From Escherichia coli (GTDB lineage Bacteria; Pseudomonadota; Gammaproteobacteria; Enterobacterales; Enterobacteriaceae): DNA of 64,000 nt. The stretch lies in assembly GCF_044647545.1 (NCBI RefSeq), contig NZ_CP172818.1; one strand, given 5' to 3'. The first letter of the stretch is position 1, and each line of letters begins with the position of its first letter. Made by a program: the position numbers and the translations under genes. The notes below the pieces were generated by a model. The model did not search any database, had not been told where the DNA came from, and saw only the letters and a list, made by a program, of their open reading frames with translations. Below are positions 1 to 63,073 of the stretch, one piece after another.

Positions 1-579
1 TCTTGCTTCTTCACATTGTACCCATAAGAAAGGGTAGAAAGTGAAGGCTTCCGTTGCCGATAATTTTATTACGTCTTCTTGCCATTGCGGCCAGCGTACA
101 TTTTCATAGAAGGTATCTAAATCACCGGATAATGCCCACTGAAGAAACTCAGAATATCCAACCTCCAGACTTTCCCAATTCAGCGTATCTGGCGCAAAAT
201 AATAAACGCAGCCAGTATCTTCCCCAAGATCGCCACCATTAAGAGCAAAAATTCCCCCTGCGACATCATCGGCGATGGGTAAAGCCCGCACGCTTGCGAA
301 TTCAGGGCGTTGTGTCCAACTTGCTGGATCTCGTGGTAACCGGGGGTGACCAGAGCCTGCTATGCGTAACCAACCGTTATCAATCAGCAGACCTCCGGAG
401 CCATAGACAAGCGCACCCATCGGTGATTTTGTTGTAACCTGTAATTGATAAAGTGCGGTTTCGGCTAAATCTTTATTAACCGGTAAGAGTTCGGCATGGT
501 TTGTGGCTTCTTTTAACCAATTCTGGATTATTGGCCAGGCTGAATCTTCAGTATTTACTAACTGACTCACTTCACGCAT
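1..579 (-). CDS. Hypothetical protein, possibly DUF2625 family (ybfG-like); partial, runs off the window start
   Basis: Reverse-strand ATG at 577-579 preceded by an AGGAG Shine-Dalgarno; open for 193 codons to position 1 (MREVSQLVNTEDSAWPIIQNWLKEA...). Family assignment is from memory only. Confidence 0.55.
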   Translation of the reverse strand, partial: MREVSQLVNTEDSAWPIIQNWLKEATNHAELLPVNKDLAETALYQLQVTTKSPMGALVYGSGGLLIDNGWLRIAGSGHPRLPRDPASWTQRPEFASVRALPIADDVAGGIFALNGGDLGEDTGCVYYFAPDTLNWESLEVGYSEFLQWALSGDLDTFYENVRWPQWQEDVIKLSATEAFTFYPFLWVQCEEAR

Positions 580-37503: not shown

Positions 37504-37893
37504 ATGATAAGAAATGTGAAAAAACAAAGACCTGTTAATCTGGACCTACAGACCATCCGGTTCCCCGTCACGGCGATAGCGTCCATTCTCCATCGCGTTT
37601 CCGGTGTGATCACCTTTGTTGCAGTGGGCATCCTGCTGTGGCTTCTGGGTACCAGCCTCTCTTCCCCTGAAGGTTTCGAGCAAGCTTCTGCGATTATGGG
37701 CAGCTTCTTCGTCAAATTTATCATGTGGGGCATCCTTACCGCTCTGGCGTATCACGTCGTCGTAGGTATTCGCCACATGATGATGGATTTTGGCTATCTG
37801 GAAGAAACATTCGAAGCGGGTAAACGCTCCGCCAAAATCTCCTTTGTTATTACTGTCGTGCTTTCACTTCTCGCAGGAGTCCTCGTATGGTAA
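37504..37893 (+). CDS. sdhC: Succinate dehydrogenase cytochrome b556 subunit
   Basis: 129 aa from [21 protein letters not shown]. Confidence 0.95.
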
Positions 37894-38234
37894 GCAACGC
37901 CTCCGCATTAGGACGCAATGGCGTACATGATTTCATCCTCGTTCGCGCTACCGCTATCGTCCTGACGCTGTACATCATTTATATGGTCGGTTTTTTCGCT
38001 ACCAGTGGCGAGCTGACATATGAAGTCTGGATTGGTTTCTTCGCCTCTGCGTTCACCAAAGTGTTCACCCTGCTGGCGCTGTTTTCTATCTTGATTCATG
38101 CCTGGATCGGCATGTGGCAGGTGTTGACCGACTACGTTAAACCGCTGGCCTTGCGCCTGATGCTGCAACTGGTGATTGTCGTTGCTCTGGTGGTTTACGT
38201 GATTTATGGATTCGTTGTGGTGTGGGGTGTGTGA
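37887..38234 (+). CDS. sdhD: Succinate dehydrogenase membrane anchor subunit
   Basis: 115-aa ORF; stop overlaps the sdhA ATG. Confidence 0.95.
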
Positions 38235-40000
38235 TGAAATTGCCAGTCAGAGAATTTGATGCAGTTGTGATTGGTGCCGGTGGCGCAGGTATGCGCGCGG
38301 CGCTGCAAATTTCCCAGAGCGGTCAGACCTGTGCGCTGCTCTCTAAAGTCTTCCCGACCCGTTCCCATACCGTGTCTGCGCAAGGCGGCATTACCGTTGC
38401 GCTGGGTAATACCCATGAAGATAACTGGGAATGGCATATGTACGACACCGTAAAAGGTTCGGACTATATCGGTGACCAGGACGCAATTGAATATATGTGT
38501 AAAACCGGGCCGGAAGCGATTCTGGAACTCGAACACATGGGCCTGCCGTTCTCGCGCCTTGATGATGGTCGTATCTATCAACGTCCGTTTGGCGGCCAGT
38601 CGAAAAACTTCGGCGGCGAGCAGGCGGCACGCACTGCGGCGGCAGCTGACCGTACCGGTCACGCACTGTTGCACACCCTTTATCAGCAGAACCTGAAAAA
38701 CCATACAACCATTTTCTCCGAGTGGTATGCGCTGGATCTGGTGAAGAACCAGGATGGCGCAGTGGTCGGTTGTACCGCATTGTGCATCGAAACTGGTGAA
38801 GTGGTTTATTTCAAAGCCCGCGCTACCGTGCTGGCGACTGGCGGGGCAGGGCGTATTTATCAGTCCACCACTAACGCCCACATTAACACTGGCGACGGCG
38901 TCGGCATGGCTATCCGCGCAGGCGTACCGGTGCAGGATATGGAAATGTGGCAGTTCCACCCGACCGGCATTGCAGGTGCGGGCGTACTGGTCACCGAAGG
39001 TTGCCGTGGTGAAGGCGGTTATCTGCTGAACAAACATGGCGAACGCTTTATGGAGCGTTATGCGCCGAACGCCAAAGACCTGGCGGGCCGTGACGTGGTG
39101 GCGCGTTCCATCATGATCGAAATCCGTGAAGGTCGCGGCTGTGATGGTCCGTGGGGGCCACACGCGAAACTGAAACTCGATCACCTGGGTAAAGAAGTTC
39201 TCGAATCCCGTCTGCCGGGTATTCTGGAACTCTCCCGTACCTTCGCTCACGTTGATCCGGTGAAAGAGCCGATTCCGGTTATCCCAACCTGTCACTACAT
39301 GATGGGCGGTATTCCGACCAAAGTGACCGGTCAGGCGCTGACGGTGAACGAGAAAGGCGAAGATGTGGTTGTTCCGGGGCTGTTTGCCGTTGGTGAAATC
39401 GCTTGTGTATCGGTACACGGCGCTAACCGTCTGGGCGGCAACTCGCTGCTGGACCTGGTGGTCTTTGGTCGCGCAGCGGGTCTGCATCTGCAAGAGTCTA
39501 TCGCCGAGCAGGGCGCACTGCGCGATGCCAGCGAGTCTGATGTTGAAGCGTCTCTGGATCGCCTGAACCGCTGGAACAATAACCGTAACGGTGAAGATCC
39601 GGTGGCGATCCGTAAAGCACTGCAAGAATGTATGCAGCATAACTTCTCGGTCTTCCGTGAAGGTGATGCGATGGCGAAAGGGCTTGAGCAGTTGAAAGTT
39701 ATCCGCGAGCGTCTGAAAAATGCCCGTCTGGATGACACTTCCAGCGAGTTCAACACCCAGCGCGTTGAGTGCCTGGAACTGGATAACCTGATGGAAACGG
39801 CGTATGCAACGGCTGTTTCTGCCAACTTCCGTACCGAAAGCCGTGGCGCGCATAGCCGCTTCGACTTCCCGGATCGCGATGATGAAAACTGGCTGTGCCA
39901 CTCCCTGTATCTGCCAGAGTCGGAATCCATGACGCGCCGAAGCGTCAACATGGAACCGAAACTGCGCCCGGCATTCCCGCCGAAGATTCGTACTTACTAA
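38234..40000 (+). CDS. sdhA: Succinate dehydrogenase flavoprotein subunit
   Basis: 588 aa from [23 protein letters not shown]. Confidence 0.95.
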
Positions 40001-40015
40001 TGCGGAGACAGGAAA

Positions 40016-40732
40016 ATGAGACTCGAGTTTTCAATTTATCGCTATAACCCGGATGTTGATGATGCTCCGCGTATGCAGGATTACACCCTGGAAGCGGAAG
40101 AAGGTCGCGACATGATGCTGCTGGATGCGCTTATCCAGCTGAAAGAGAAAGATCCCAGCCTGTCGTTCCGTCGCTCCTGCCGTGAAGGTGTGTGCGGTTC
40201 CGACGGTCTGAACATGAACGGTAAGAATGGTCTGGCCTGTATTACCCCGATTTCGGCACTCAACCAGCCGGGCAAGAAGATTGTGATTCGCCCGCTGCCA
40301 GGTTTACCGGTGATCCGCGATTTGGTGGTAGACATGGGACAATTCTATGCGCAATATGAGAAAATTAAGCCTTACCTGTTGAATAATGGACAAAATCCGC
40401 CAGCTCGCGAGCATTTACAGATGCCAGAGCAGCGCGAAAAACTCGACGGGTTGTATGAATGTATTCTCTGCGCATGTTGTTCAACCTCTTGTCCGTCTTT
40501 CTGGTGGAATCCCGATAAGTTTATCGGCCCGGCAGGCTTGTTAGCGGCATATCGTTTCCTGATCGATAGCCGTGATACCGAGACTGACAGCCGCCTCGAC
40601 GGTTTGAGCGATGCATTCAGTGTATTCCGCTGTCACAGCATCATGAACTGCGTCAGTGTATGTCCGAAGGGGCTGAACCCGACGCGCGCCATCGGCCATA
40701 TCAAGTCGATGTTGTTGCAACGTAATGCGTAA
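40016..40732 (+). CDS. sdhB: Succinate dehydrogenase iron-sulfur subunit
   Basis: 238-aa ORF with Fe-S cysteine clusters. Confidence 0.95.
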   Translation: MRLEFSIYRYNPDVDDAPRMQDYTLEAEEGRDMMLLDALIQLKEKDPSLSFRRSCREGVCGSDGLNMNGKNGLACITPISALNQPGKKIVIRPLPGLPVIRDLVVDMGQFYAQYEKIKPYLLNNGQNPPAREHLQMPEQREKLDGLYECILCACCSTSCPSFWWNPDKFIGPAGLLAAYRFLIDSRDTETDSRLDGLSDAFSVFRCHSIMNCVSVCPKGLNPTRAIGHIKSMLLQRNA

Positions 40733-40912
40733 TTAATGTCGGGAATTCAGGAAATCTTTAAAAACTGCCCCTGACACTAAGACAGTTTTTAAAGGTTCCT
40801 TCGCGAGCCACTACGTAGACAAGAGCTCGCAAGTGAACCCCGGCACGCACATCACTGTGCGTGGTAGTATCCACGGCGAAGTAAGCATAAAAAAGATGCT
40901 TAAGGGATCACG

Positions 40913-43714
40913 ATGCAGAACAGCGCTTTGAAAGCCTGGTTGGACTCTTCTTACCTCTCTGGCGCAAACCAGAGCTGGATAGAACAGCTCTATGAAGACT
41001 TCTTAACCGATCCTGACTCGGTTGACGCTAACTGGCGTTCGACGTTCCAGCAGTTACCTGGTACGGGAGTCAAACCGGATCAATTCCACTCTCAAACGCG
41101 TGAATATTTCCGCCGCCTGGCGAAAGACGCTTCACGTTACTCTTCAACGATCTCCGACCCTGACACCAATGTGAAGCAGGTTAAAGTCCTGCAGCTCATT
41201 AACGCATACCGCTTCCGTGGTCACCAGCATGCGAATCTCGATCCGCTGGGACTGTGGCAGCAAGATAAAGTGGCCGATCTGGATCCGTCTTTCCACGATC
41301 TGACCGAAGCAGACTTCCAGGAGACCTTCAACGTCGGTTCATTTGCCAGCGGCAAAGAAACCATGAAACTCGGCGAGCTGCTGGAAGCCCTCAAGCAAAC
41401 CTACTGCGGCCCGATTGGTGCCGAGTATATGCACATCACCAGCACCGAAGAAAAACGCTGGATCCAACAGCGTATCGAGTCTGGTCGCGCGACTTTCAAT
41501 AGCGAAGAGAAAAAACGCTTCTTAAGCGAACTGACCGCCGCTGAAGGCCTTGAACGTTACCTCGGCGCAAAATTCCCTGGCGCAAAACGCTTCTCGCTGG
41601 AAGGCGGTGACGCGTTAATCCCGATGCTTAAAGAGATGATCCGCCACGCTGGCAACAGCGGCACCCGCGAAGTGGTTCTCGGGATGGCGCACCGTGGTCG
41701 TCTGAACGTGCTGGTGAACGTGCTGGGTAAAAAACCGCAAGACTTGTTCGACGAGTTTGCCGGTAAACATAAAGAACACCTCGGCACGGGCGACGTGAAA
41801 TACCACATGGGCTTCTCGTCTGACTTCCAGACCGATGGCGGCCTGGTGCACCTGGCGCTGGCGTTTAACCCGTCTCACCTTGAGATTGTCAGCCCGGTAG
41901 TTATCGGTTCTGTTCGTGCCCGTCTGGACAGACTCGATGAGCCGAGCAGCAACAAAGTGCTGCCAATCACCATCCACGGTGACGCCGCAGTGACCGGGCA
42001 GGGCGTGGTTCAGGAAACCCTGAACATGTCGAAAGCGCGTGGTTATGAAGTTGGCGGTACGGTACGTATCGTTATCAACAACCAGGTTGGCTTCACCACC
42101 TCTAACCCGCTGGATGCCCGTTCGACGCCGTACTGTACTGATATCGGTAAGATGGTTCAGGCACCGATTTTCCACGTTAATGCGGATGATCCGGAAGCCG
42201 TTGCCTTTGTTACCCGTCTGGCGCTCGATTTCCGTAACACCTTTAAACGTGATGTCTTCATCGACCTGGTATGCTACCGCCGTCACGGCCACAACGAAGC
42301 CGACGAGCCGAGCGCAACCCAGCCGCTGATGTATCAGAAAATCAAAAAACATCCGACGCCGCGCAAAATCTACGCTGACAAGCTGGAGCAGGAAAAAGTC
42401 GCGACGCTGGAAGATGCCACCGAGATGGTTAACCTGTACCGCGATGCGCTGGATGCTGGCGATTGCGTGGTAGCAGAGTGGCGTCCGATGAACATGCACT
42501 CCTTCACCTGGTCGCCGTACCTCAACCACGAATGGGACGAAGAGTACCCGAACAAAGTTGAGATGAAGCGCCTGCAGGAGTTGGCTAAACGCATCAGTAC
42601 GGTGCCGGAAGCCATTGAAATGCAGTCTCGCGTTGCCAAGATTTATGGCGACCGTCAGGCGATGGCAGCCGGTGAAAAACTGTTCGACTGGGGCGGCGCG
42701 GAAAACCTCGCTTACGCCACGCTGGTTGACGAAGGCATTCCGGTTCGCCTGTCGGGTGAAGACTCCGGTCGCGGTACCTTCTTCCACCGCCACGCGGTGA
42801 TCCACAACCAGTCTAACGGTTCAACTTACACGCCGCTGCAACATATCCATAACGGTCAGGGCGCGTTCCGTGTCTGGGATTCCGTACTGTCAGAAGAAGC
42901 CGTGCTGGCGTTTGAATACGGTTATGCCACCGCAGAACCGCGCACACTGACTATCTGGGAAGCACAGTTCGGTGACTTTGCCAACGGTGCTCAGGTGGTT
43001 ATCGACCAGTTCATCTCTTCTGGCGAGCAGAAATGGGGCCGGATGTGTGGCCTGGTGATGTTGTTGCCGCACGGTTACGAAGGGCAGGGGCCGGAGCACT
43101 CCTCCGCGCGTCTGGAACGTTATCTGCAACTTTGCGCTGAGCAAAACATGCAGGTGTGCGTACCGTCTACCCCGGCACAGGTTTACCACATGCTGCGTCG
43201 TCAGGCGCTGCGCGGGATGCGTCGTCCGCTGGTCGTGATGTCGCCGAAATCCCTGCTGCGTCATCCGCTGGCGGTTTCCAGCCTCGAAGAACTGGCGAAC
43301 GGCACCTTCCTGCCAGCCATCGGTGAAATCGACGAGCTTGATCCGAAGGGCGTGAAGCGCGTAGTGATGTGTTCTGGTAAGGTTTATTACGACCTGCTGG
43401 AACAACGTCGTAAGAACAATCAACACGATGTCGCCATTGTGCGTATCGAGCAACTCTACCCGTTCCCGCATAAAGCGATGCAGGAAGTGTTGCAGCAGTT
43501 TGCTCACGTCAAGGATTTTGTCTGGTGCCAGGAAGAGCCGCTCAATCAGGGCGCATGGTACTGCAGCCAGCATCATTTCCGTGAAGTGATTCCGTTTGGG
43601 GCTTCTCTGCGTTATGCAGGCCGCCCGGCCTCCGCCTCTCCGGCGGTAGGGTATATGTCCGTTCACCAGAAACAGCAACAAGATCTGGTTAATGACGCGC
43701 TGAACGTCGAATAA
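40913..43714 (+). CDS. sucA: 2-oxoglutarate dehydrogenase E1 component
   Basis: 933-aa [41 protein letters not shown]... Confidence 0.95.
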
Positions 43715-43728
43715 ATAAAGGATACACA

Positions 43729-44946
43729 ATGAGTAGCGTAGATATTCTGGTCCCTGACCTGCCTGAATCCGTAGCCGATGCCACCGTCGCAACCTGGCAT
43801 AAAAAACCCGGCGACGCAGTCGTACGTGATGAAGTGCTGGTAGAAATCGAAACTGACAAAGTGGTACTGGAAGTACCGGCATCAGCAGACGGCATTCTGG
43901 ATGCGGTTCTGGAAGATGAAGGTACAACGGTAACGTCTCGTCAGATCCTTGGTCGCCTGCGTGAAGGCAACAGCGCGGGTAAAGAAACCAGCGCCAAATC
44001 TGAAGAGAAAGCGTCCACTCCGGCGCAACGCCAGCAGGCGTCTCTGGAAGAGCAAAACAACGATGCGTTAAGCCCGGCGATCCGTCGCCTGCTGGCTGAA
44101 CATAACCTCGACGCCAGCGCCATTAAAGGCACCGGTGTGGGTGGTCGTCTGACCCGTGAAGATGTGGAAAAACATCTGGCGAAAGCCCCGGCGAAAGAGT
44201 CTGCTCCGGCAGCGGCTGCTCCGGCGGCGCAACCGGCCCTGGCTGCACGTAGCGAAAAACGTGTGCCGATGACTCGCCTGCGTAAGCGTGTGGCAGAGCG
44301 TCTGCTGGAAGCGAAAAACTCCACCGCCATGCTGACCACGTTCAACGAAGTCAACATGAAGCCGATTATGGATCTGCGTAAGCAGTACGGTGAAGCGTTT
44401 GAAAAACGCCACGGCATCCGTCTGGGCTTTATGTCCTTCTACGTGAAAGCGGTGGTTGAAGCCCTGAAACGTTACCCGGAAGTGAATGCTTCTATCGACG
44501 GCGATGACGTGGTTTACCACAACTATTTCGACGTCAGCATGGCGGTTTCTACGCCGCGCGGCCTGGTGACGCCGGTACTGCGTGATGTCGATACCCTCGG
44601 TATGGCAGACATTGAGAAGAAAATTAAAGAGCTGGCTGTTAAAGGCCGTGACGGCAAGCTGACGGTTGAAGATCTGACCGGTGGCAACTTCACCATCACC
44701 AACGGTGGTGTGTTCGGTTCCCTGATGTCTACGCCTATCATCAACCCGCCGCAGAGCGCAATTTTGGGTATGCACGCTATCAAAGATCGTCCGATGGCCG
44801 TGAATGGTCAGGTTGAGATCCTGCCGATGATGTACCTGGCGCTGTCCTACGATCACCGTCTGATCGATGGTCGCGAATCCGTGGGCTTCCTGGTAACGAT
44901 CAAAGAGTTGCTGGAAGATCCGACGCGTCTGCTGCTGGACGTGTAG
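43729..44946 (+). CDS. sucB: Dihydrolipoyllysine-residue succinyltransferase (E2)
   Basis: 405-aa ORF with lipoyl domain, Ala/Pro linker and catalytic domain. Confidence 0.95.
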
Positions 44947-45035
44947 TAGTTTAAGTTTCACCTGCACTGTAGACCGACGGGATGTGTCGGTCTACGGTTT
45001 AAAAGATAACGATTACTGAAGGATGGACAGAACAC

Positions 45036-46202
45036 ATGAACTTACATGAATATCAGGCAAAACAACTTTTTGCCCGCTATGGCTTACCAGCACCGGTGGG
45101 TTATGCCTGTACTACTCCGCGCGAAGCAGAAGAAGCCGCTTCAAAAATCGGTGCCGGTCCGTGGGTAGTGAAATGTCAGGTTCACGCTGGTGGCCGCGGT
45201 AAAGCGGGCGGTGTGAAAGTGGTAAACAGCAAAGAAGACATCCGTGCTTTTGCAGAAAACTGGCTGGGCAAGCGTCTGGTAACGTATCAAACAGATGCCA
45301 ATGGCCAACCGGTTAACCAGATTCTGGTTGAAGCAGCGACCGATATCGCTAAAGAGCTGTATCTCGGTGCCGTTGTAGACCGTAGTTCACGTCGCGTGGT
45401 CTTTATGGCCTCCACCGAAGGCGGCGTGGAAATCGAAAAAGTGGCGGAAGAAACTCCGCACCTGATCCACAAAGTTGCGCTTGATCCGCTGACTGGCCCG
45501 ATGCCGTATCAAGGACGCGAGCTGGCGTTCAAACTGGGTCTGGAAGGTAAACTGGTTCAGCAGTTCACCAAAATCTTCATGGGCCTGGCGACCATTTTCC
45601 TGGAGCGCGACCTGGCGCTGATCGAAATCAACCCGCTGGTCATCACCAAACAGGGCGATCTGATTTGCCTCGACGGCAAACTGGGCGCTGATGGCAACGC
45701 ACTGTTCCGCCAGCCTGATCTGCGCGAAATGCGTGACCAGTCGCAGGAAGATCCGCGTGAAGCACAGGCTGCACAGTGGGAACTGAACTACGTTGCGCTG
45801 GACGGTAACATCGGTTGTATGGTTAACGGCGCAGGCCTGGCGATGGGCACCATGGACATCGTTAAACTGCACGGCGGCGAACCAGCTAACTTCCTGGACG
45901 TTGGCGGCGGCGCAACCAAAGAGCGCGTAACCGAAGCGTTCAAAATCATCCTCTCTGACGACAAAGTGAAAGCCGTTCTGGTTAACATCTTCGGCGGTAT
46001 CGTTCGTTGCGACCTGATCGCTGACGGTATCATCGGCGCGGTAGCGGAAGTGGGTGTTAACGTACCGGTCGTGGTACGTCTGGAAGGTAACAACGCCGAA
46101 CTCGGCGCGAAGAAACTGGCTGACAGCGGCCTGAATATTATTGCAGCAAAAGGTCTGACGGATGCAGCTCAGCAGGTTGTTGCCGCAGTGGAGGGGAAAT
46201 AA
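45036..46202 (+). CDS. sucC: Succinyl-CoA synthetase beta subunit
   Basis: 388-aa [23 protein letters not shown]...; TAATG overlap with sucD. Confidence 0.95.
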
Positions 46203-47071
46203 TGTCCATTTTAATTGATAAAAACACCAAGGTTATCTGCCAGGGCTTTACCGGTAGCCAGGGGACTTTCCACTCAGAACAGGCTATTGCATACGGCACT
46301 AAAATGGTTGGCGGCGTAACCCCAGGTAAAGGCGGCACCACCCACCTCGGCCTGCCGGTGTTCAACACCGTGCGTGAAGCTGTTGCTGCTACTGGCGCTA
46401 CCGCTTCTGTTATCTACGTACCAGCACCGTTCTGCAAAGACTCCATTCTGGAAGCTATTGATGCAGGCATCAAACTGATTATCACCATCACTGAAGGCAT
46501 CCCGACGCTGGATATGCTGACCGTGAAGGTGAAACTGGATGAAGCGGGCGTTCGCATGATCGGCCCGAACTGCCCAGGCGTTATCACTCCGGGTGAATGC
46601 AAAATCGGTATCCAGCCTGGTCACATTCACAAACCGGGTAAAGTGGGTATCGTTTCCCGTTCCGGTACACTGACCTATGAAGCGGTTAAACAGACCACGG
46701 ATTACGGTTTCGGTCAGTCGACCTGTGTTGGTATCGGCGGCGACCCGATCCCTGGCTCTAACTTTATCGACATCCTCGAAATGTTCGAAAAAGATCCGCA
46801 GACCGAAGCGATCGTGATGATCGGTGAGATCGGCGGTAGCGCTGAAGAAGAAGCGGCTGCGTACATCAAAGAGCACGTTACCAAGCCTGTTGTGGGTTAC
46901 ATCGCTGGTGTGACTGCGCCGAAAGGCAAACGTATGGGCCACGCGGGTGCGATCATTGCCGGTGGGAAAGGGACTGCGGATGAGAAATTCGCTGCTCTGG
47001 AAGCCGCAGGCGTGAAAACCGTTCGCAGCCTGGCTGATATCGGTGAAGCACTGAAAACTGTTCTGAAATAA
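46202..47071 (+). CDS. sucD: Succinyl-CoA synthetase alpha subunit
   Basis: 289-aa [27 protein letters not shown]... Confidence 0.95.
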
Positions 47072-47170
47072 ATATCTGTAATAAGAAATAGCCCTCGCCG
47101 CTTCCCTCTACAGGAATGGCGAAGGGCTGTCGGTTTCGACATGGTTGGCCATCATATGATGGCCTTTTTT
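47072..47170 (+). ncRNA. sdhX: sucD 3' UTR with terminator hairpin; candidate SdhX (RybD) 3'-UTR-derived sRNA
   Basis: Hairpin ggcc-atcatatgat-ggcc at 47147-47164 followed by tttttt; assigned by position after sucD; boundaries approximate. Confidence 0.45.
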
Positions 47171-47174
47171 ATGC

Positions 47175-47897
47175 TTATCGCGATGATTTTCGCTGCGCTA
47201 TCAGGGTAAATTTATAGTCATCGGTATTAAAAGCGTTGCGGCTATATTCAAACACCCGACCATCAACTAAATATCCACGCGATACTTTTTCAAGAATCGG
47301 CTTTGTCTGGCTGATATTAAGCAGACGGCTCATCTCTTCGGTTGGCATCAGAGGAATGATTTCCTGTTCGCTACGATCGATAACCATTTTCTTCACTTCT
47401 TCGATAAAGTGATATTTCGAATTTTCCATGACCTGCCAGGTGAGATCCGGGAACAACGCAAGCGGCATCCAGGTTTCTTCCAGCGCCATTGGCTTTTGCT
47501 TGCGATAGCGCACGCGCTTCACATGCCACACACGATCCTGCGGGGTGATTTGTAGCTGTTGCTGAAGAAAATCGTCAGCCGGAATCACTTCGAATATCAG
47601 AACTTCACTGTGTGTATCGACGTGACGGTCCGACAGTTTTTCATCAAAACTGGTTAACTGAAAAATATCGTAATTGACCCGCTCTTCTTTGACGTAAGTC
47701 CCGCTGCCCTGAATGCTTTCGAGGATCTGCTGCTCGACTAGCTGGCGCAAAGCCTGACGCACCGTAACCCGGCTGACGCCAAACTCTGTTTGTAGCGCTG
47801 ATTCAGTGGGTAACGCATCGCCAGGTTTAAGCTCGCCACGCGCAATTTGTTCACGAATGCGATCGGCAATCTGCCGGTATAAGGGCTTGTGTCCCAT
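47175..47897 (-). CDS. mngR: GntR-family transcriptional regulator of mannosyl-D-glycerate uptake
   Basis: 240-aa ORF with N-terminal GntR helix-turn-helix and UTRA-like C-terminal domain. Confidence 0.9.
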   Translation of the reverse strand: MGHKPLYRQIADRIREQIARGELKPGDALPTESALQTEFGVSRVTVRQALRQLVEQQILESIQGSGTYVKEERVNYDIFQLTSFDEKLSDRHVDTHSEVLIFEVIPADDFLQQQLQITPQDRVWHVKRVRYRKQKPMALEETWMPLALFPDLTWQVMENSKYHFIEEVKKMVIDRSEQEIIPLMPTEEMSRLLNISQTKPILEKVSRGYLVDGRVFEYSRNAFNTDDYKFTLIAQRKSSR

Positions 47898-48005
47898 TTT
47901 TAGTATCTCATTAATACGAATTTAACCATTATGCCCGATAAATTCATCCTGTAAATAATACAAATACAATACAAATAATTTCAATCAAGTGAAATTGATC
48001 ACATA

Positions 48006-49982
48006 ATGGTATTGTTTTATCGGGCACACTGGCGCGACTATAAAAACGATCAAGTGAGGATCATGATGAATCTGACGACTCTGACCCACCGCGATGCGTT
48101 GTGTCTGAATGCGCGCTTTACCAGCCGTGAAGAGGCCATCCACGCGTTGACTCAACGTCTTGCTGCTCTGGGGAAAATTTCCAGTACTGAGCAATTTCTG
48201 GAAGAAGTGTATCGCCGTGAAAGCCTTGGCCCGACCGCCTTAGGTGAAGGGTTGGCTGTGCCGCATGGCAAAACTGCTGCGGTAAAAGAAGCGGCGTTTG
48301 CGGTCGCCACACTCAGCGAGCCGCTTCAGTGGGAAGGCGTTGATGGCCCGGAAGCAGTTGATTTAGTGGTGCTGCTGGCGATTCCCCCCAATGAAGCGGG
48401 TACTACGCATATGCAACTGCTGACAGCGCTGACCACGCGCCTTGCGGATGATGAGATTCGGGCGCGTATACAGTCGGCGACGACGCCTGATGAGTTGCTC
48501 TCGGCGCTGGATGACAAGGGAGGCACGCAACCTTCTGCCTCTTTTTCCAACGCGCCAACTATCGTCTGCGTAACGGCCTGTCCGGCGGGTATTGCTCACA
48601 CCTATATGGCTGCGGAATATCTGGAAAAAGCCGGACGCAAACTCGGCGTAAATGTTTACGTTGAAAAACAAGGCGCTAACGGCATTGAAGGGCGTTTAAC
48701 GGCGGATCAACTCAATAGTGCAACCGCCTGTATTTTTGCGGCTGAAGTCGCCATCAAGGAGAGTGAGCGTTTTAATGGCATTCCCGCGCTTTCAGTGCCT
48801 GTTGCCGAGCCGATTCGCCATGCAGAAGCGTTGATCCAACAAGCGCTTACCCTCAAGCGTAGCGATGAGACGCGTACCGTACAGCAAGATACGCAACCGG
48901 TGAAAAGTGTCAAAACGGAGCTGAAACAGGCACTGTTGAGCGGAATCTCTTTTGCCGTACCGTTGATTGTCGCGGGGGGCACGGTGCTGGCGGTCGCGGT
49001 ATTACTGTCGCAAATCTTCGGGCTACAAGATCTGTTTAATGAAGAAAACTCCTGGCTGTGGATGTACCGCAAGCTGGGCGGCGGGCTGCTCGGAATTTTG
49101 ATGGTACCGGTGCTCGCGGCCTATACCGCCTATTCTCTGGCAGATAAACCGGCGTTAGCGCCAGGCTTTGCGGCTGGACTTGCCGCCAACATGATCGGCT
49201 CCGGGTTTCTCGGCGCGGTCGTTGGCGGATTGATAGCCGGTTACTTGATGCGCTGGGTGAAAAATCACTTGCGTCTTAGCAGTAAATTCAATGGATTCCT
49301 GACTTTTTATCTCTACCCGGTGCTCGGTACGTTGGGAGCGGGCAGTCTGATGCTGTTTGTGGTGGGGGAACCTGTCGCCTGGATCAATAACTCGCTTACC
49401 GCCTGGCTGAACGGTCTGTCAGGAAGTAACGCGCTGTTGCTGGGTGCCATTCTCGGTTTTATGTGTTCCTTTGACCTTGGAGGGCCAGTGAATAAAGCCG
49501 CTTATGCATTCTGCCTGGGCGCAATGGCGAACGGCGTTTACGGCCCGTATGCCATTTTCGCCTCCGTCAAAATGGTTTCGGCATTTACCGTAACCGCTTC
49601 CACGATGCTCGCACCGCGCCTGTTTAAAGAGTTTGAAATTGAGACCGGGAAATCCACCTGGCTGTTAGGGCTGGCAGGTATTACCGAAGGGGCGATCCCG
49701 ATGGCGATTGAAGATCCGCTGCGGGTTATTGGTTCGTTTGTGCTGGGCTCTATGGTAACGGGCGCTATTGTCGGTGCGATGAATATCGGCCTTTCGACAC
49801 CCGGTGCCGGCATTTTCTCGCTCTTTTTACTTCATGATAATGGCGCGGGCGGTGTTATGGCGGCAATTGGCTGGTTTGGCGCGGCATTGGTGGGGGCTGC
49901 AATCTCGACTGCAATTCTCCTGATGTGGCGGCGTCACGCGGTTAAGCATGGCAACTATCTGACTGATGGCGTAATGCCATAA
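48006..49982 (+). CDS. mngA: PTS 2-O-alpha-mannosyl-D-glycerate-specific EIIABC component; start uncertain (48006 or 48066)
   Basis: 658-aa open frame with fructose-type PTS domains; the in-frame ATG at 48066 has a strong GAGGA Shine-Dalgarno, the one at 48006 has none. Confidence 0.85.
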
Positions 49983-55066: not shown

Positions 55067-56206
55067 ATGATCGATTATGAAGTATTGCGTTTTATCTGGT
55101 GGCTGCTGGTTGGCGTTCTGCTGATTGGTTTTGCAGTCACTGACGGTTTCGACATGGGGGTGGGCATGCTCACCCGTTTCCTCGGTCGTAACGACACCGA
55201 GCGTCGAATTATGATTAACTCCATTGCACCACACTGGGACGGTAACCAGGTTTGGCTGATCACCGCGGGCGGCGCACTCTTTGCTGCCTGGCCGATGGTC
55301 TATGCCGCTGCGTTCTCCGGCTTCTATGTGGCGATGATCCTCGTGCTGGCGTCTTTGTTCTTCCGTCCGGTCGGTTTTGACTACCGCTCCAAGATTGAAG
55401 AAACCCGCTGGCGTAACATGTGGGACTGGGGCATCTTCATTGGTAGCTTCGTTCCGCCGCTGGTGATTGGTGTAGCGTTCGGTAACCTGTTGCAGGGCGT
55501 ACCGTTCAACGTTGATGAATATCTGCGTCTGTACTACACCGGTAACTTTTTCCAGCTGCTTAACCCGTTCGGCCTGCTGGCAGGCGTGGTGAGCGTAGGG
55601 ATGATCATTACTCAGGGCGCAACCTATCTGCAAATGCGTACCGTGGGTGAACTGCACTTGCGTACCCGTGCAACGGCTCAGGTGGCGGCACTGGTGACAC
55701 TGGTCTGCTTCGCACTGGCTGGCGTATGGGTGATGTACGGTATCGATGGTTATGTTGTGAAATCAACAATGGACCATTACGCAGCCTCTAACCCGCTGAA
55801 TAAAGAAGTGGTTCGTGAAGCTGGCGCATGGCTGGTTAACTTCAACAACACGCCAATTCTGTGGGCTATTCCGGCACTGGGTGTGGTTCTGCCGCTGCTG
55901 ACCATCCTGACTGCACGTATGGATAAAGCCGCGTGGGCGTTTGTGTTCTCCTCCCTGACGCTGGCCTGCATCATCCTGACTGCCGGTATCGCAATGTTCC
56001 CGTTTGTGATGCCGTCCAGCACCATGATGAACGCAAGTCTGACAATGTGGGATGCAACTTCCAGCCAGCTGACGCTTAACGTCATGACCTGGGTTGCGGT
56101 GGTTCTGGTACCGATCATTCTGCTCTACACCGCCTGGTGCTACTGGAAAATGTTCGGTCGTATCACCAAAGAAGATATTGAACGTAACACCCACTCTCTG
56201 TACTAA
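55067..56206 (+). CDS. cydB: Cytochrome bd-I ubiquinol oxidase subunit II
   Basis: 379-aa ORF MIDYEVLRFIWWLLVGVLLIGFAVTDGFDMGVG... Confidence 0.95.
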   Translation: MIDYEVLRFIWWLLVGVLLIGFAVTDGFDMGVGMLTRFLGRNDTERRIMINSIAPHWDGNQVWLITAGGALFAAWPMVYAAAFSGFYVAMILVLASLFFRPVGFDYRSKIEETRWRNMWDWGIFIGSFVPPLVIGVAFGNLLQGVPFNVDEYLRLYYTGNFFQLLNPFGLLAGVVSVGMIITQGATYLQMRTVGELHLRTRATAQVAALVTLVCFALAGVWVMYGIDGYVVKSTMDHYAASNPLNKEVVREAGAWLVNFNNTPILWAIPALGVVLPLLTILTARMDKAAWAFVFSSLTLACIILTAGIAMFPFVMPSSTMMNASLTMWDATSSQLTLNVMTWVAVVLVPIILLYTAWCYWKMFGRITKEDIERNTHSLY

Positions 56207-61067: not shown

Positions 61068-61613
<546 letters not shown>

Positions 61614-61622
61614 GAGAATTGC

Positions 61623-62414
61623 ATGAGCAGTAACTTCAGACATCAACTATTGAGTCTGTCGTTACTGGTTGGTATAGCGGCCCCCTGGGCCGCTTTTGCT
61701 CAGGCACCAATCAGTAGTGTCGGCTCAGGCTCGGTCGAAGACCGCGTCACTCAACTTGAGCGTATTTCTAATGCTCACAGCCAGCTTTTAACCCAACTCC
61801 AGCAACAACTCTCTGATAATCAATCCGATATTGATTCCCTGCGTGGTCAGATTCAGGAAAATCAGTATCAACTGAATCAGGTCGTGGAGCGGCAAAAGCA
61901 GATCCTGTTGCAGATCGACAGCCTCAGCAGCGGTGGTGCAGCGGCGCAATCAACCAGCGGTGATCAAAGCGGTGCGGCGGCATCAACGACGCCGACAGCT
62001 GATGCTGGTACTGCGAATGCTGGCGCGCCGGTGAAAAGCGGTGATGCAAACACGGATTACAATGCAGCTATTGCGCTGGTGCAGGATAAATCCCGCCAGG
62101 ATGACGCAATGGTGGCATTTCAGAATTTCATCAAAAATTACCCTGATTCAACTTACCTGCCAAACGCCAATTATTGGCTGGGTCAGTTAAACTACAACAA
62201 GGGTAAAAAAGATGATGCGGCGTATTATTTTGCTTCGGTAGTGAAAAACTATCCGAAGTCACCGAAGGCTGCAGATGCGATGTTTAAAGTCGGCGTCATC
62301 ATGCAGGACAAAGGTGACACCGCAAAAGCGAAAGCCGTATACCAGCAGGTTATCAGTAAATACCCTGGTACTGATGGCGCTAAACAGGCGCAAAAACGTC
62401 TGAACGCGATGTAA
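61623..62414 (+). CDS. cpoB: Cell division coordinator CpoB (YbgF), TPR protein
   Basis: 263-aa ORF with signal peptide, coiled coil and TPR repeats; last gene of the tol-pal cluster. Confidence 0.9.
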   Translation: MSSNFRHQLLSLSLLVGIAAPWAAFAQAPISSVGSGSVEDRVTQLERISNAHSQLLTQLQQQLSDNQSDIDSLRGQIQENQYQLNQVVERQKQILLQIDSLSSGGAAAQSTSGDQSGAAASTTPTADAGTANAGAPVKSGDANTDYNAAIALVQDKSRQDDAMVAFQNFIKNYPDSTYLPNANYWLGQLNYNKGKKDDAAYYFASVVKNYPKSPKAADAMFKVGVIMQDKGDTAKAKAVYQQVISKYPGTDGAKQAQKRLNAM

Positions 62415-62578: not shown

Positions 62579-62654
62579 GGGTCGTTAGCTCAGTTGGTAG
62601 AGCAGTTGACTTTTAATCAATTGGTCGCAGGTTCGAATCCTGCACGACCCACCA
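62579..62654 (+). tRNA. lysT: tRNA-Lys (UUU)
   Basis: 76-nt gggtcgttagctcagttggtagagcagttgacttttaatcaattggtcgcaggttcgaatcctgcacgacccacca; anticodon loop cuUUUaa; encoded CCA. Confidence 0.95.
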
Positions 62655-62789
62655 ATCGCTAAGGTGGAAGCGGTAGTAAAACGTGAAGGATAACGTTGCG
62701 TCAGCAACGGCCCGAAGGGCGAGACGAAGTCGAGTCATCCTGCACGACCCACCACTAACATAGTTAGTTGTAGTATCCAGCGTAGTATC

Positions 62790-62865
62790 GGGTGATTAGC
62801 TCAGCTGGGAGAGCACCTCCCTTACAAGGAGGGGGTCGGCGGTTCGATCCCGTCATCACCCACCA
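62790..62865 (+). tRNA. valT: tRNA-Val (UAC)
   Basis: 76-nt gggtgattagctcagctgggagagcacctcccttacaaggagggggtcggcggttcgatcccgtcatcacccacca. Confidence 0.95.
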
Positions 62866-62867
62866 CC

Positions 62868-62943
62868 GGGTCGTTAGCTCAGTTGGTAGAGCAGTTGACT
62901 TTTAATCAATTGGTCGCAGGTTCGAATCCTGCACGACCCACCA
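62868..62943 (+). tRNA. lysW: tRNA-Lys (UUU)
   Basis: Identical 76-nt tRNA-Lys sequence. Confidence 0.95.
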
Positions 62944-62994
62944 CTAATTACGGTGGGTTCGGTGGAAGTAGTTTGTAGTATCCAGCGCAGTATC

Positions 62995-63070
62995 GGGTGA
63001 TTAGCTCAGCTGGGAGAGCACCTCCCTTACAAGGAGGGGGTCGGCGGTTCGATCCCGTCATCACCCACCA
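62995..63070 (+). tRNA. valZ: tRNA-Val (UAC)
   Basis: Identical 76-nt tRNA-Val sequence. Confidence 0.95.
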
Positions 63071-63073
63071 CTC

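Follow-up and report, generated by a model that had tools for sequence, protein, structure and literature searches.

Does the untranslated tail that follows sucD in this stretch of E. coli DNA encode the small regulatory RNA SdhX (RybD), as a reading of the sequence alone had proposed, or does it do no more than end one or both of two convergent transcripts? The tail was analysed within the 64-kb stretch of which it forms part (referred to below as the window), using homology and covariance-model searches, structure prediction, target pairing and comparison with related genomes, together with the published work on SdhX.

The sucD-mngR gap and annotated K-12 sdhX

The sucD ORF encodes the alpha subunit of succinate--CoA ligase (NCBIfam NF004230, 492.5 bits against a cut-off of 336), and the ORF upstream of it encodes SucC (NCBIfam). 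Upstream of sucD, the + strand ORFs match sdhCDAB-sucABC in order and size; in E. coli records, this stretch carries the annotations sdhA, sucA, odhB and sucC. The convergent ORF on the other side of the gap encodes a 240-aa GntR-family regulator (NCBIfam NF007292, 524 bits), for which the name MngR was taken from the annotation of E. coli records. The gap between the two stop codons is 103 nt long (47072-47174), and 4 nt separate the end of the U-tract (47170) from the mngR stop codon (47175). The sequence-only reading had described an untranslated tail after the sucD stop codon, with a strong terminator at its end and abutting the 3' end of mngR, and all of these features are present at 47072-47170. 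This interval closes with the final T of the T-run; in K-12, sdhX is annotated 2 nt beyond that point (to 47172). The features of the locus and the computed target pairings are collected in Table 1.

Table 1. Coordinates of the features at the sucD-mngR boundary (window positions) and computed pairings of SdhX with its targets (SdhX nucleotides, target positions and energies in kcal/mol).
Feature	Position	Strand	Description
sucD	ORF 46202-47071	+	Stop codon TAA 47069-47071; last cistron of sdhCDAB-sucABCD; parental mRNA of the sRNA
Full-length SdhX (RybD), 101 nt	47072-47172	+	As annotated in K-12
SL1, long 5' stem-loop	47090-47128	+	Variable, Escherichia-specific part of SdhX; predicted in MFE and centroid structures
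katG-pairing region, SdhX nt 29-42	47100-47113	+	Spans SL1 loop and 5' arm
Small 4-bp hairpin, loop G62-U65	47129-47140	+	Predicted from fold and unpaired probabilities
Seed UUCGACAUGGU	47135-47145	+	Exact match to published seed; core CGACAU 47137-47142
Rho-independent terminator	47147-47170	+	Scan, fold, covariation
mngR	ORF 47175-47897	-	Convergent with sucD; context only, outside the sRNA
ackA -2..+8, target sequence to pair CCAUGUCGAG	SdhX nt 64-73		10 bp, 1 G.U; hybrid -14.4; net after opening -8.9
fdoG -22..-13, target sequence to pair AUGUCGAAAC	SdhX nt 62-71		10 Watson-Crick bp; hybrid -12.0; net after opening -4.7
katG -20..-7, target sequence to pair CUGUAGAGGGGAGC	SdhX nt 29-42		14 bp, 1 G.U; hybrid -25.1; net after opening -5.3

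In the RefSeq record of E. coli K-12 MG1655 (NC_000913.3), the sdhX ncRNA b4764 ("small regulatory RNA SdhX") lies at 765050-765150; its first base comes directly after sucD and its end is 2 nt before mngR. Alignment of 47072-47172 with b4764 was gapless, with 99 of 101 bases the same and the seed unchanged. The K-12 gene has the same position, length (101 nt), seed, G62, C34, SL1 and terminator stem as the window, and differs from it at two bases. Position 47154, the first base of the terminator loop, is A here and G in K-12 (U in E. albertii), while 47171, after the U-tract, is A here and G in K-12. Both substitutions lie outside the seed, the stems and the pairing positions, and the predicted fold and energy are the same for the window and K-12 alleles. 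Thus the identification of the tail as SdhX, which had been made from position alone, stands: position, identity with b4764, seed, G62 and C34 all agree. The RNA size of roughly 40-100 nt that had been expected also agrees with the published forms of ~101 and ~38 nt (PMC9438474).

We conclude that 47072-47172 is almost certainly the sdhX (rybD) locus, encoding a 3' UTR-derived, Hfq-dependent sRNA with the published processing and ackA mechanism. SdhX at this locus is already known. Sequence identity, anatomy, an intact seed and intact pairing residues, conservation and covariation were established in this analysis; from published work on near-identical alleles (98% identity, every functional residue kept) we infer that the window allele would also be processed, bind Hfq and repress its targets.

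Predicted structure, target pairing and processing

The 101-nt RNA was predicted to fold to -41.3 kcal/mol (z = -5.4; none of 200 shuffles was as good), and the predicted structure comprises SL1 (in both the MFE and the centroid structures), the 4-bp hairpin and the terminator. The terminator consists of a 7-bp GC-rich stem (47147-47153/47158-47164), the loop AUAU (47154-47157) and six U residues (47165-47170), the hairpin reading GGCCAUC-AUAU-GAUGGCC (47147-47164). Its fold of -11.5 kcal/mol equals that of the K-12 allele. A simple terminator scan was not discriminating here (1 found vs. 1.1 expected in shuffles), and fold z-scores and covariation were consequently used instead. In an alignment of 23 sequences, 100% of the cells in the terminator stem were paired and 4 of the 7 pairs showed compensatory changes; the covariation score of the stem was reached by none of 500 shuffles, and slid registers were 22-62% paired. 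Terminators of this type are preferred Hfq targets (PMC6393394), and this one would be the expected Hfq-binding module. As for SL1, SdhX of E. albertii carries a compensatory double change, C28U/G47A, at the predicted pair 28-47 (L007 2389-2427), which supports the view that the SL1 stem is under selection within Escherichia.

The published seed, UUCGACAUGGU, is located directly before the terminator and has CGACAU as its conserved core (Miyakoshi et al., PMC6393394). In the window, it ends one base 5' of the terminator stem. Compensatory mutations have shown that, in E. coli, G62 pairs with C-13 of fdoG and C34 with the Shine-Dalgarno region of katG (C34G) (PMC6393394). Numbered from the end of the sucD CDS, these residues correspond to 47133 and 47105, where G and C, respectively, are present.

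Pairing was computed against target 5' regions from K-12; the ackA, katG and fdoG genes of the source strain lie outside the window. The computed registers match the published ones (ackA C+5/G67, fdoG C-13/G62 and the katG Shine-Dalgarno with nt 29-42), which were validated by compensatory mutations (PMC6393394). The ackA range takes in the AUG and the UCG second codon, and the katG range covers the Shine-Dalgarno sequence. Moreover, SdhX-ackA and SdhX-katG chimeras have been recovered by Hfq CLASH in E. coli (PMC7213987). A run of at least 10 bp to nt 61-76 was found in 65 of 4,000 random 90-nt windows (1.6%); at this chance rate complementarity alone is weak, and the functional claim rests on the published genetics and the Hfq CLASH chimeras. 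RNAduplex with the full-length sRNA and 90-nt targets gave hybrids no better than shuffled ones (ackA -37.0 vs. a shuffle mean of -35.5). Full-length RNAduplex is unsuited to the question, and a contiguous-complementarity search with opening energies was used instead.

Two further matches to the seed region were observed in the window. The seed recurs at 55143-55156, a site that was considered as a - strand target start (CC-ATG-TCG); it is in frame within cydB and has the sense of the sRNA itself, and was rejected on these grounds. The sequence at this site, CGGTTTCGACATGG (+ strand, inside the cydB ORF 55067-56206), has a 14-nt same-sense identity to SdhX nt 60-73 and reads G-F-D-M-G in the CydB frame; being in the same sense, it cannot pair with SdhX. 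Its chance probability is about 5e-4 (a 14-mer in 128 kb), for a match that was noticed post hoc and is under coding constraint. The other match, CATGTCGAA, lies in sucA (42025-42033, + strand), within the parental transcript, and matches the seed's complement over 9 nt. About 0.24 such matches are expected by chance per window strand, and it was treated as noise.

In the long form, the predicted fold places the 5' half of the seed partly within the 4-bp hairpin. The cost of opening the seed was 3.2 kcal/mol in the 101-nt form vs. 0.2 kcal/mol in the short form, and because of this drop we infer that cleavage would free the seed fully. The motif GG/UUU (47132-47136; the slash marks the cleavage position) lies in the predicted loop G62-U65. 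We take this motif to match the RNase E consensus RN/WUU. It is at the published processing position, since the SdhX2 processing site was placed at UUU and at E. coli G62 (PMC6393394). Both forms of SdhX were active in the published work, and the short form depends on the 5' sensor of RNase E (PMC6393394).

Taken together with the published results, the anatomy of the locus would fit the following course of events. The sdhCDAB-sucABCD transcript would run through sucD and stop at the intrinsic terminator. RNase E would cut the 3' end off the mRNA to give the ~101-nt form, starting near the sucD stop codon, and cleavage at GG/UUU (47133/47134) would give the form of ~38-39 nt. Hfq would bind the terminator hairpin and the U-tail, and the single-stranded seed UUCGACAUGG would pair with the ackA mRNA across the AUG and the UCG second codon (-2..+8). 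This pairing would block translation initiation of acetate kinase, leaving pta unaffected, and expression of the TCA-cycle operon would in this way be tied to the metabolism of acetate and acetyl-phosphate. In E. coli-type alleles, G62 would extend the seed so that fdoG is repressed, and the SL1 loop region around C34 would pair with the katG Shine-Dalgarno sequence so that katG is repressed as well.

Conservation and covariance-model searches

Within E. coli, the 101-nt stretch was found in 5,425 of 5,426 complete genomes, at a median copy number of one. A 36-nt query that runs from the end of SL1 through the seed to the terminator's 5' arm (47118-47153) was identical in 5,365 of the 5,426. 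No feature is annotated at the sdhX position in the PGAP records of E. coli genomes. An origin of SL1 from a REP-like repeat was considered and rejected, the 101-nt stretch being single-copy in genomes and the covariance model described below having one hit in the window. Over 37000-49000, the best-matching complete E. coli genomes were ~98.7-98.8% identical to the window, in 2-3 pieces, and spanned 190-305 more bases, so that one or more short insertions are missing from the window in the sdh-suc-mng region. This places the window within the divergence seen at the E. coli/Shigella level, though it comes from none of the complete genomes compared.

The downstream flank of sdhX varies. It is mngR in the window and in K-12, a convergent RtcB-family gene followed by hutU in E. 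coli FDAARGOS_497, and a convergent uncharacterised ORF in E. albertii. Identity with the window stops ~4 nt past the U-tract, at the downstream stop codon (47172-47180; L004 3098-3110; L007 2468-2480). Judged by coverage of at least 80% of 46900-47300, which was reached by 3,882 of 5,426 genomes, mngR is not contiguous with sdhX in ~28% of complete E. coli genomes, while sdhX is universal.

Across species, we collected 80 loci, one genome per species, by SucD protein and without reference to the seed, and scanned the 260 nt after the stop codon. The exact seed and the terminator were found in Escherichia albertii, Citrobacter, several Enterobacter, Kluyvera, Pluralibacter, Phytobacter, Mangrovibacter, Superficieibacter and Cedecea. 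A variant seed with 1-2 changes that keep GACAU was present in three of four Serratia species, Dickeya, Rahnella and Hafnia; the variant seeds all read UCGACAU, except in the metagenome-assembled genome L008 (UUGACAU). In the same 80-locus sample, the seed was absent after sucD in Pantoea, Erwinia, Tatumella, Rosenbergiella, Photorhabdus, Arsenophonus, Budvicia and all sampled non-Enterobacterales. Within the sample, seed and terminator after sucD are confined to Enterobacteriaceae plus Serratia, Rahnella, Dickeya and Hafnia. Between 15 and 134 nt separate the seed from the stop codon, and the sequence of this spacer is unrelated between genera. In the 23-sequence alignment, GACAU was invariant and the C preceding it nearly so. 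Invariant sequence beside a covarying stem is the pattern that would be expected of a base-pairing seed placed before a structural terminator. This cross-species pattern reproduces the published picture.

Three tails deviate individually. The seed is degenerate in Enterobacter sp. BIGb0383 (TTGCGACTTAACT, L019 2415-2465), missing from the tail of Serratia grimesii (L024) and partial in Yersinia artesiana (TTCGACACCTC, L046 2407-2440), and each of them has kept the terminator after sucD. The seed is lost or decayed in these individual lineages, which still have the terminator.

Rfam 15 holds no SdhX family. No SdhX was returned either by scanning the whole window at gathering thresholds or by a local scan (46950-47300, E <= 10), and the local hits were at chance level. 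Among the local hits, RyhB (RF00057) reached 15.1 bits (E = 3.2) against a gathering threshold of 55 and covered the terminator hairpin only, a chance likeness between terminators; two archaeal snoRNA models were likewise at chance level. Elsewhere in the window, Rfam matched the CpoB/ybgF thermometer (142 bits), a cluster of seven tRNAs and an RtT element (60.6 bits) (61514-61652; 62579-63378; 62586-62754). A covariance model of the seed-terminator module gave exactly one hit in the 64-kb window, at 61.6 bits. Since the training alignment included the window, this hit is no independent evidence. A match to any training sequence is built in, and consequently the model shows only uniqueness in the window and the absence of missed copies. 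In taxa outside the training set, the model matched the terminator half only (<=32 bits), except for a degenerate full-length match in BIGb0383 (L019, 25.6 bits).

Other readings of the gap, known systems and meaning

That the tail is a bare terminator or a cis-acting 3' UTR is very improbable. The terminator is certainly present, by scan, fold and covariation, and taxa without the seed keep a terminator after sucD (the terminator-only model matches in Erwiniaceae and others). In addition, removing the entire 3' UTR lowers SucD protein (Miyakoshi et al., PMC6393394), so the tail also has a cis role. However, a bare terminator leaves unexplained an invariant 11-nt single-stranded sequence that is kept upstream of a covarying stem in many genera while the rest is unrelated, and regulation in trans has been published for a 98%-identical allele, through both compensatory mutations and Hfq chimeras. 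More improbable still is an sRNA gene that, like MicL, is transcribed independently from a promoter of its own, here within the 3' end of sucD, instead of a processing product. The imperfect tracking of SucD and SdhX levels (Miyakoshi et al., PMC6393394) would fit such a gene, but the only promoter-like site in 46500-47700 is at 46626-46653 (9/12 matches), ~450 nt upstream, and one site is no more than chance (1 vs. 1.2 expected). No promoter-like site was found within ~420 nt upstream of the sRNA. The lack of a site above chance fits processing and not independent transcription, as do the published absence of a transcription start site or conserved promoter, the loss of both species in the rne-ts strain and the dependence on the RNase E 5' sensor (Miyakoshi et al., PMC6393394).

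A reading of the structured gap from the opposite strand, mainly as the terminator of convergent mngR with the likeness to SdhX secondary, is likewise extremely unlikely. The reverse complement of SL1 (47072-47130, - strand) has a predicted fold of -24.2 kcal/mol, with UAUUUCUUAUU after it, and each of three different flanks has a convergent gene or ORF downstream whose end lies only a few nt from the 3' end of sdhX. Against this, the seed and the + strand terminator are kept in genera with a different SL1 and a different downstream gene, and SL1 is identical in a strain without mngR next to sdhX. In the reverse reading, the hairpin of the sdhX terminator has AACCAUGU after it and lacks a U-run, and searching the literature for a bidirectional terminator between sucD and mngR returned nothing. 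Termination of mngR is at most an added role of SL1. In a weaker version, SL1 might double as a - strand intrinsic terminator of whichever convergent gene lies downstream, an idea that we hold tentatively and consider rather unlikely; if it were true, the 103-nt gap would be an overlapping two-way terminator and sRNA module at the boundary of strain-variable gene cassettes.

As an sRNA processed from the sucD transcript, SdhX of the window can be compared with that of Salmonella Typhimurium, where SdhX1 (87 nt) and SdhX2 (38 nt) come from the 3' end of the same operon, carry the same seed UUCGACAUGGU and target ackA (PMC6393394). Salmonella SdhX is also processed by RNase E and Hfq-dependent (PMC6393394). 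By contrast, it has U in place of the G62 of the window and E. coli, and does not repress fdoG (PMC6393394); it is also without the katG-pairing 5' region, whereas the window carries the E. coli-type features. Furthermore, Salmonella SdhX represses fumB and yfbV, which E. coli SdhX does not, owing to synonymous changes in the targets (PMC6393394). CpxQ, SroC, NarS, MalH and the glnA 3' UTR sRNA share with SdhX the release by RNase E, the use of the parental terminator as Hfq module and a short seed upstream of it (PMC9438474). Unlike the CpxQ-type sRNAs, SdhX comes from the end of a ~10-kb operon of eight genes. Beyond a core of ~6-11 nt its sequence varies to an unusual degree, in contrast to CpxQ, which is better conserved than the coding sequence of its parent.

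Biologically the locus adds nothing new, and its practical value lies in annotation. Since there is no PGAP feature and no Rfam 15 model, sdhX is unannotated in nearly all genomes, and across the functional core the unannotated copies have the same sequence as the curated K-12 gene. SdhX is a textbook regulatory RNA from the 3' end of an operon, linking expression of the TCA cycle to acetate kinase and acetyl-phosphate.
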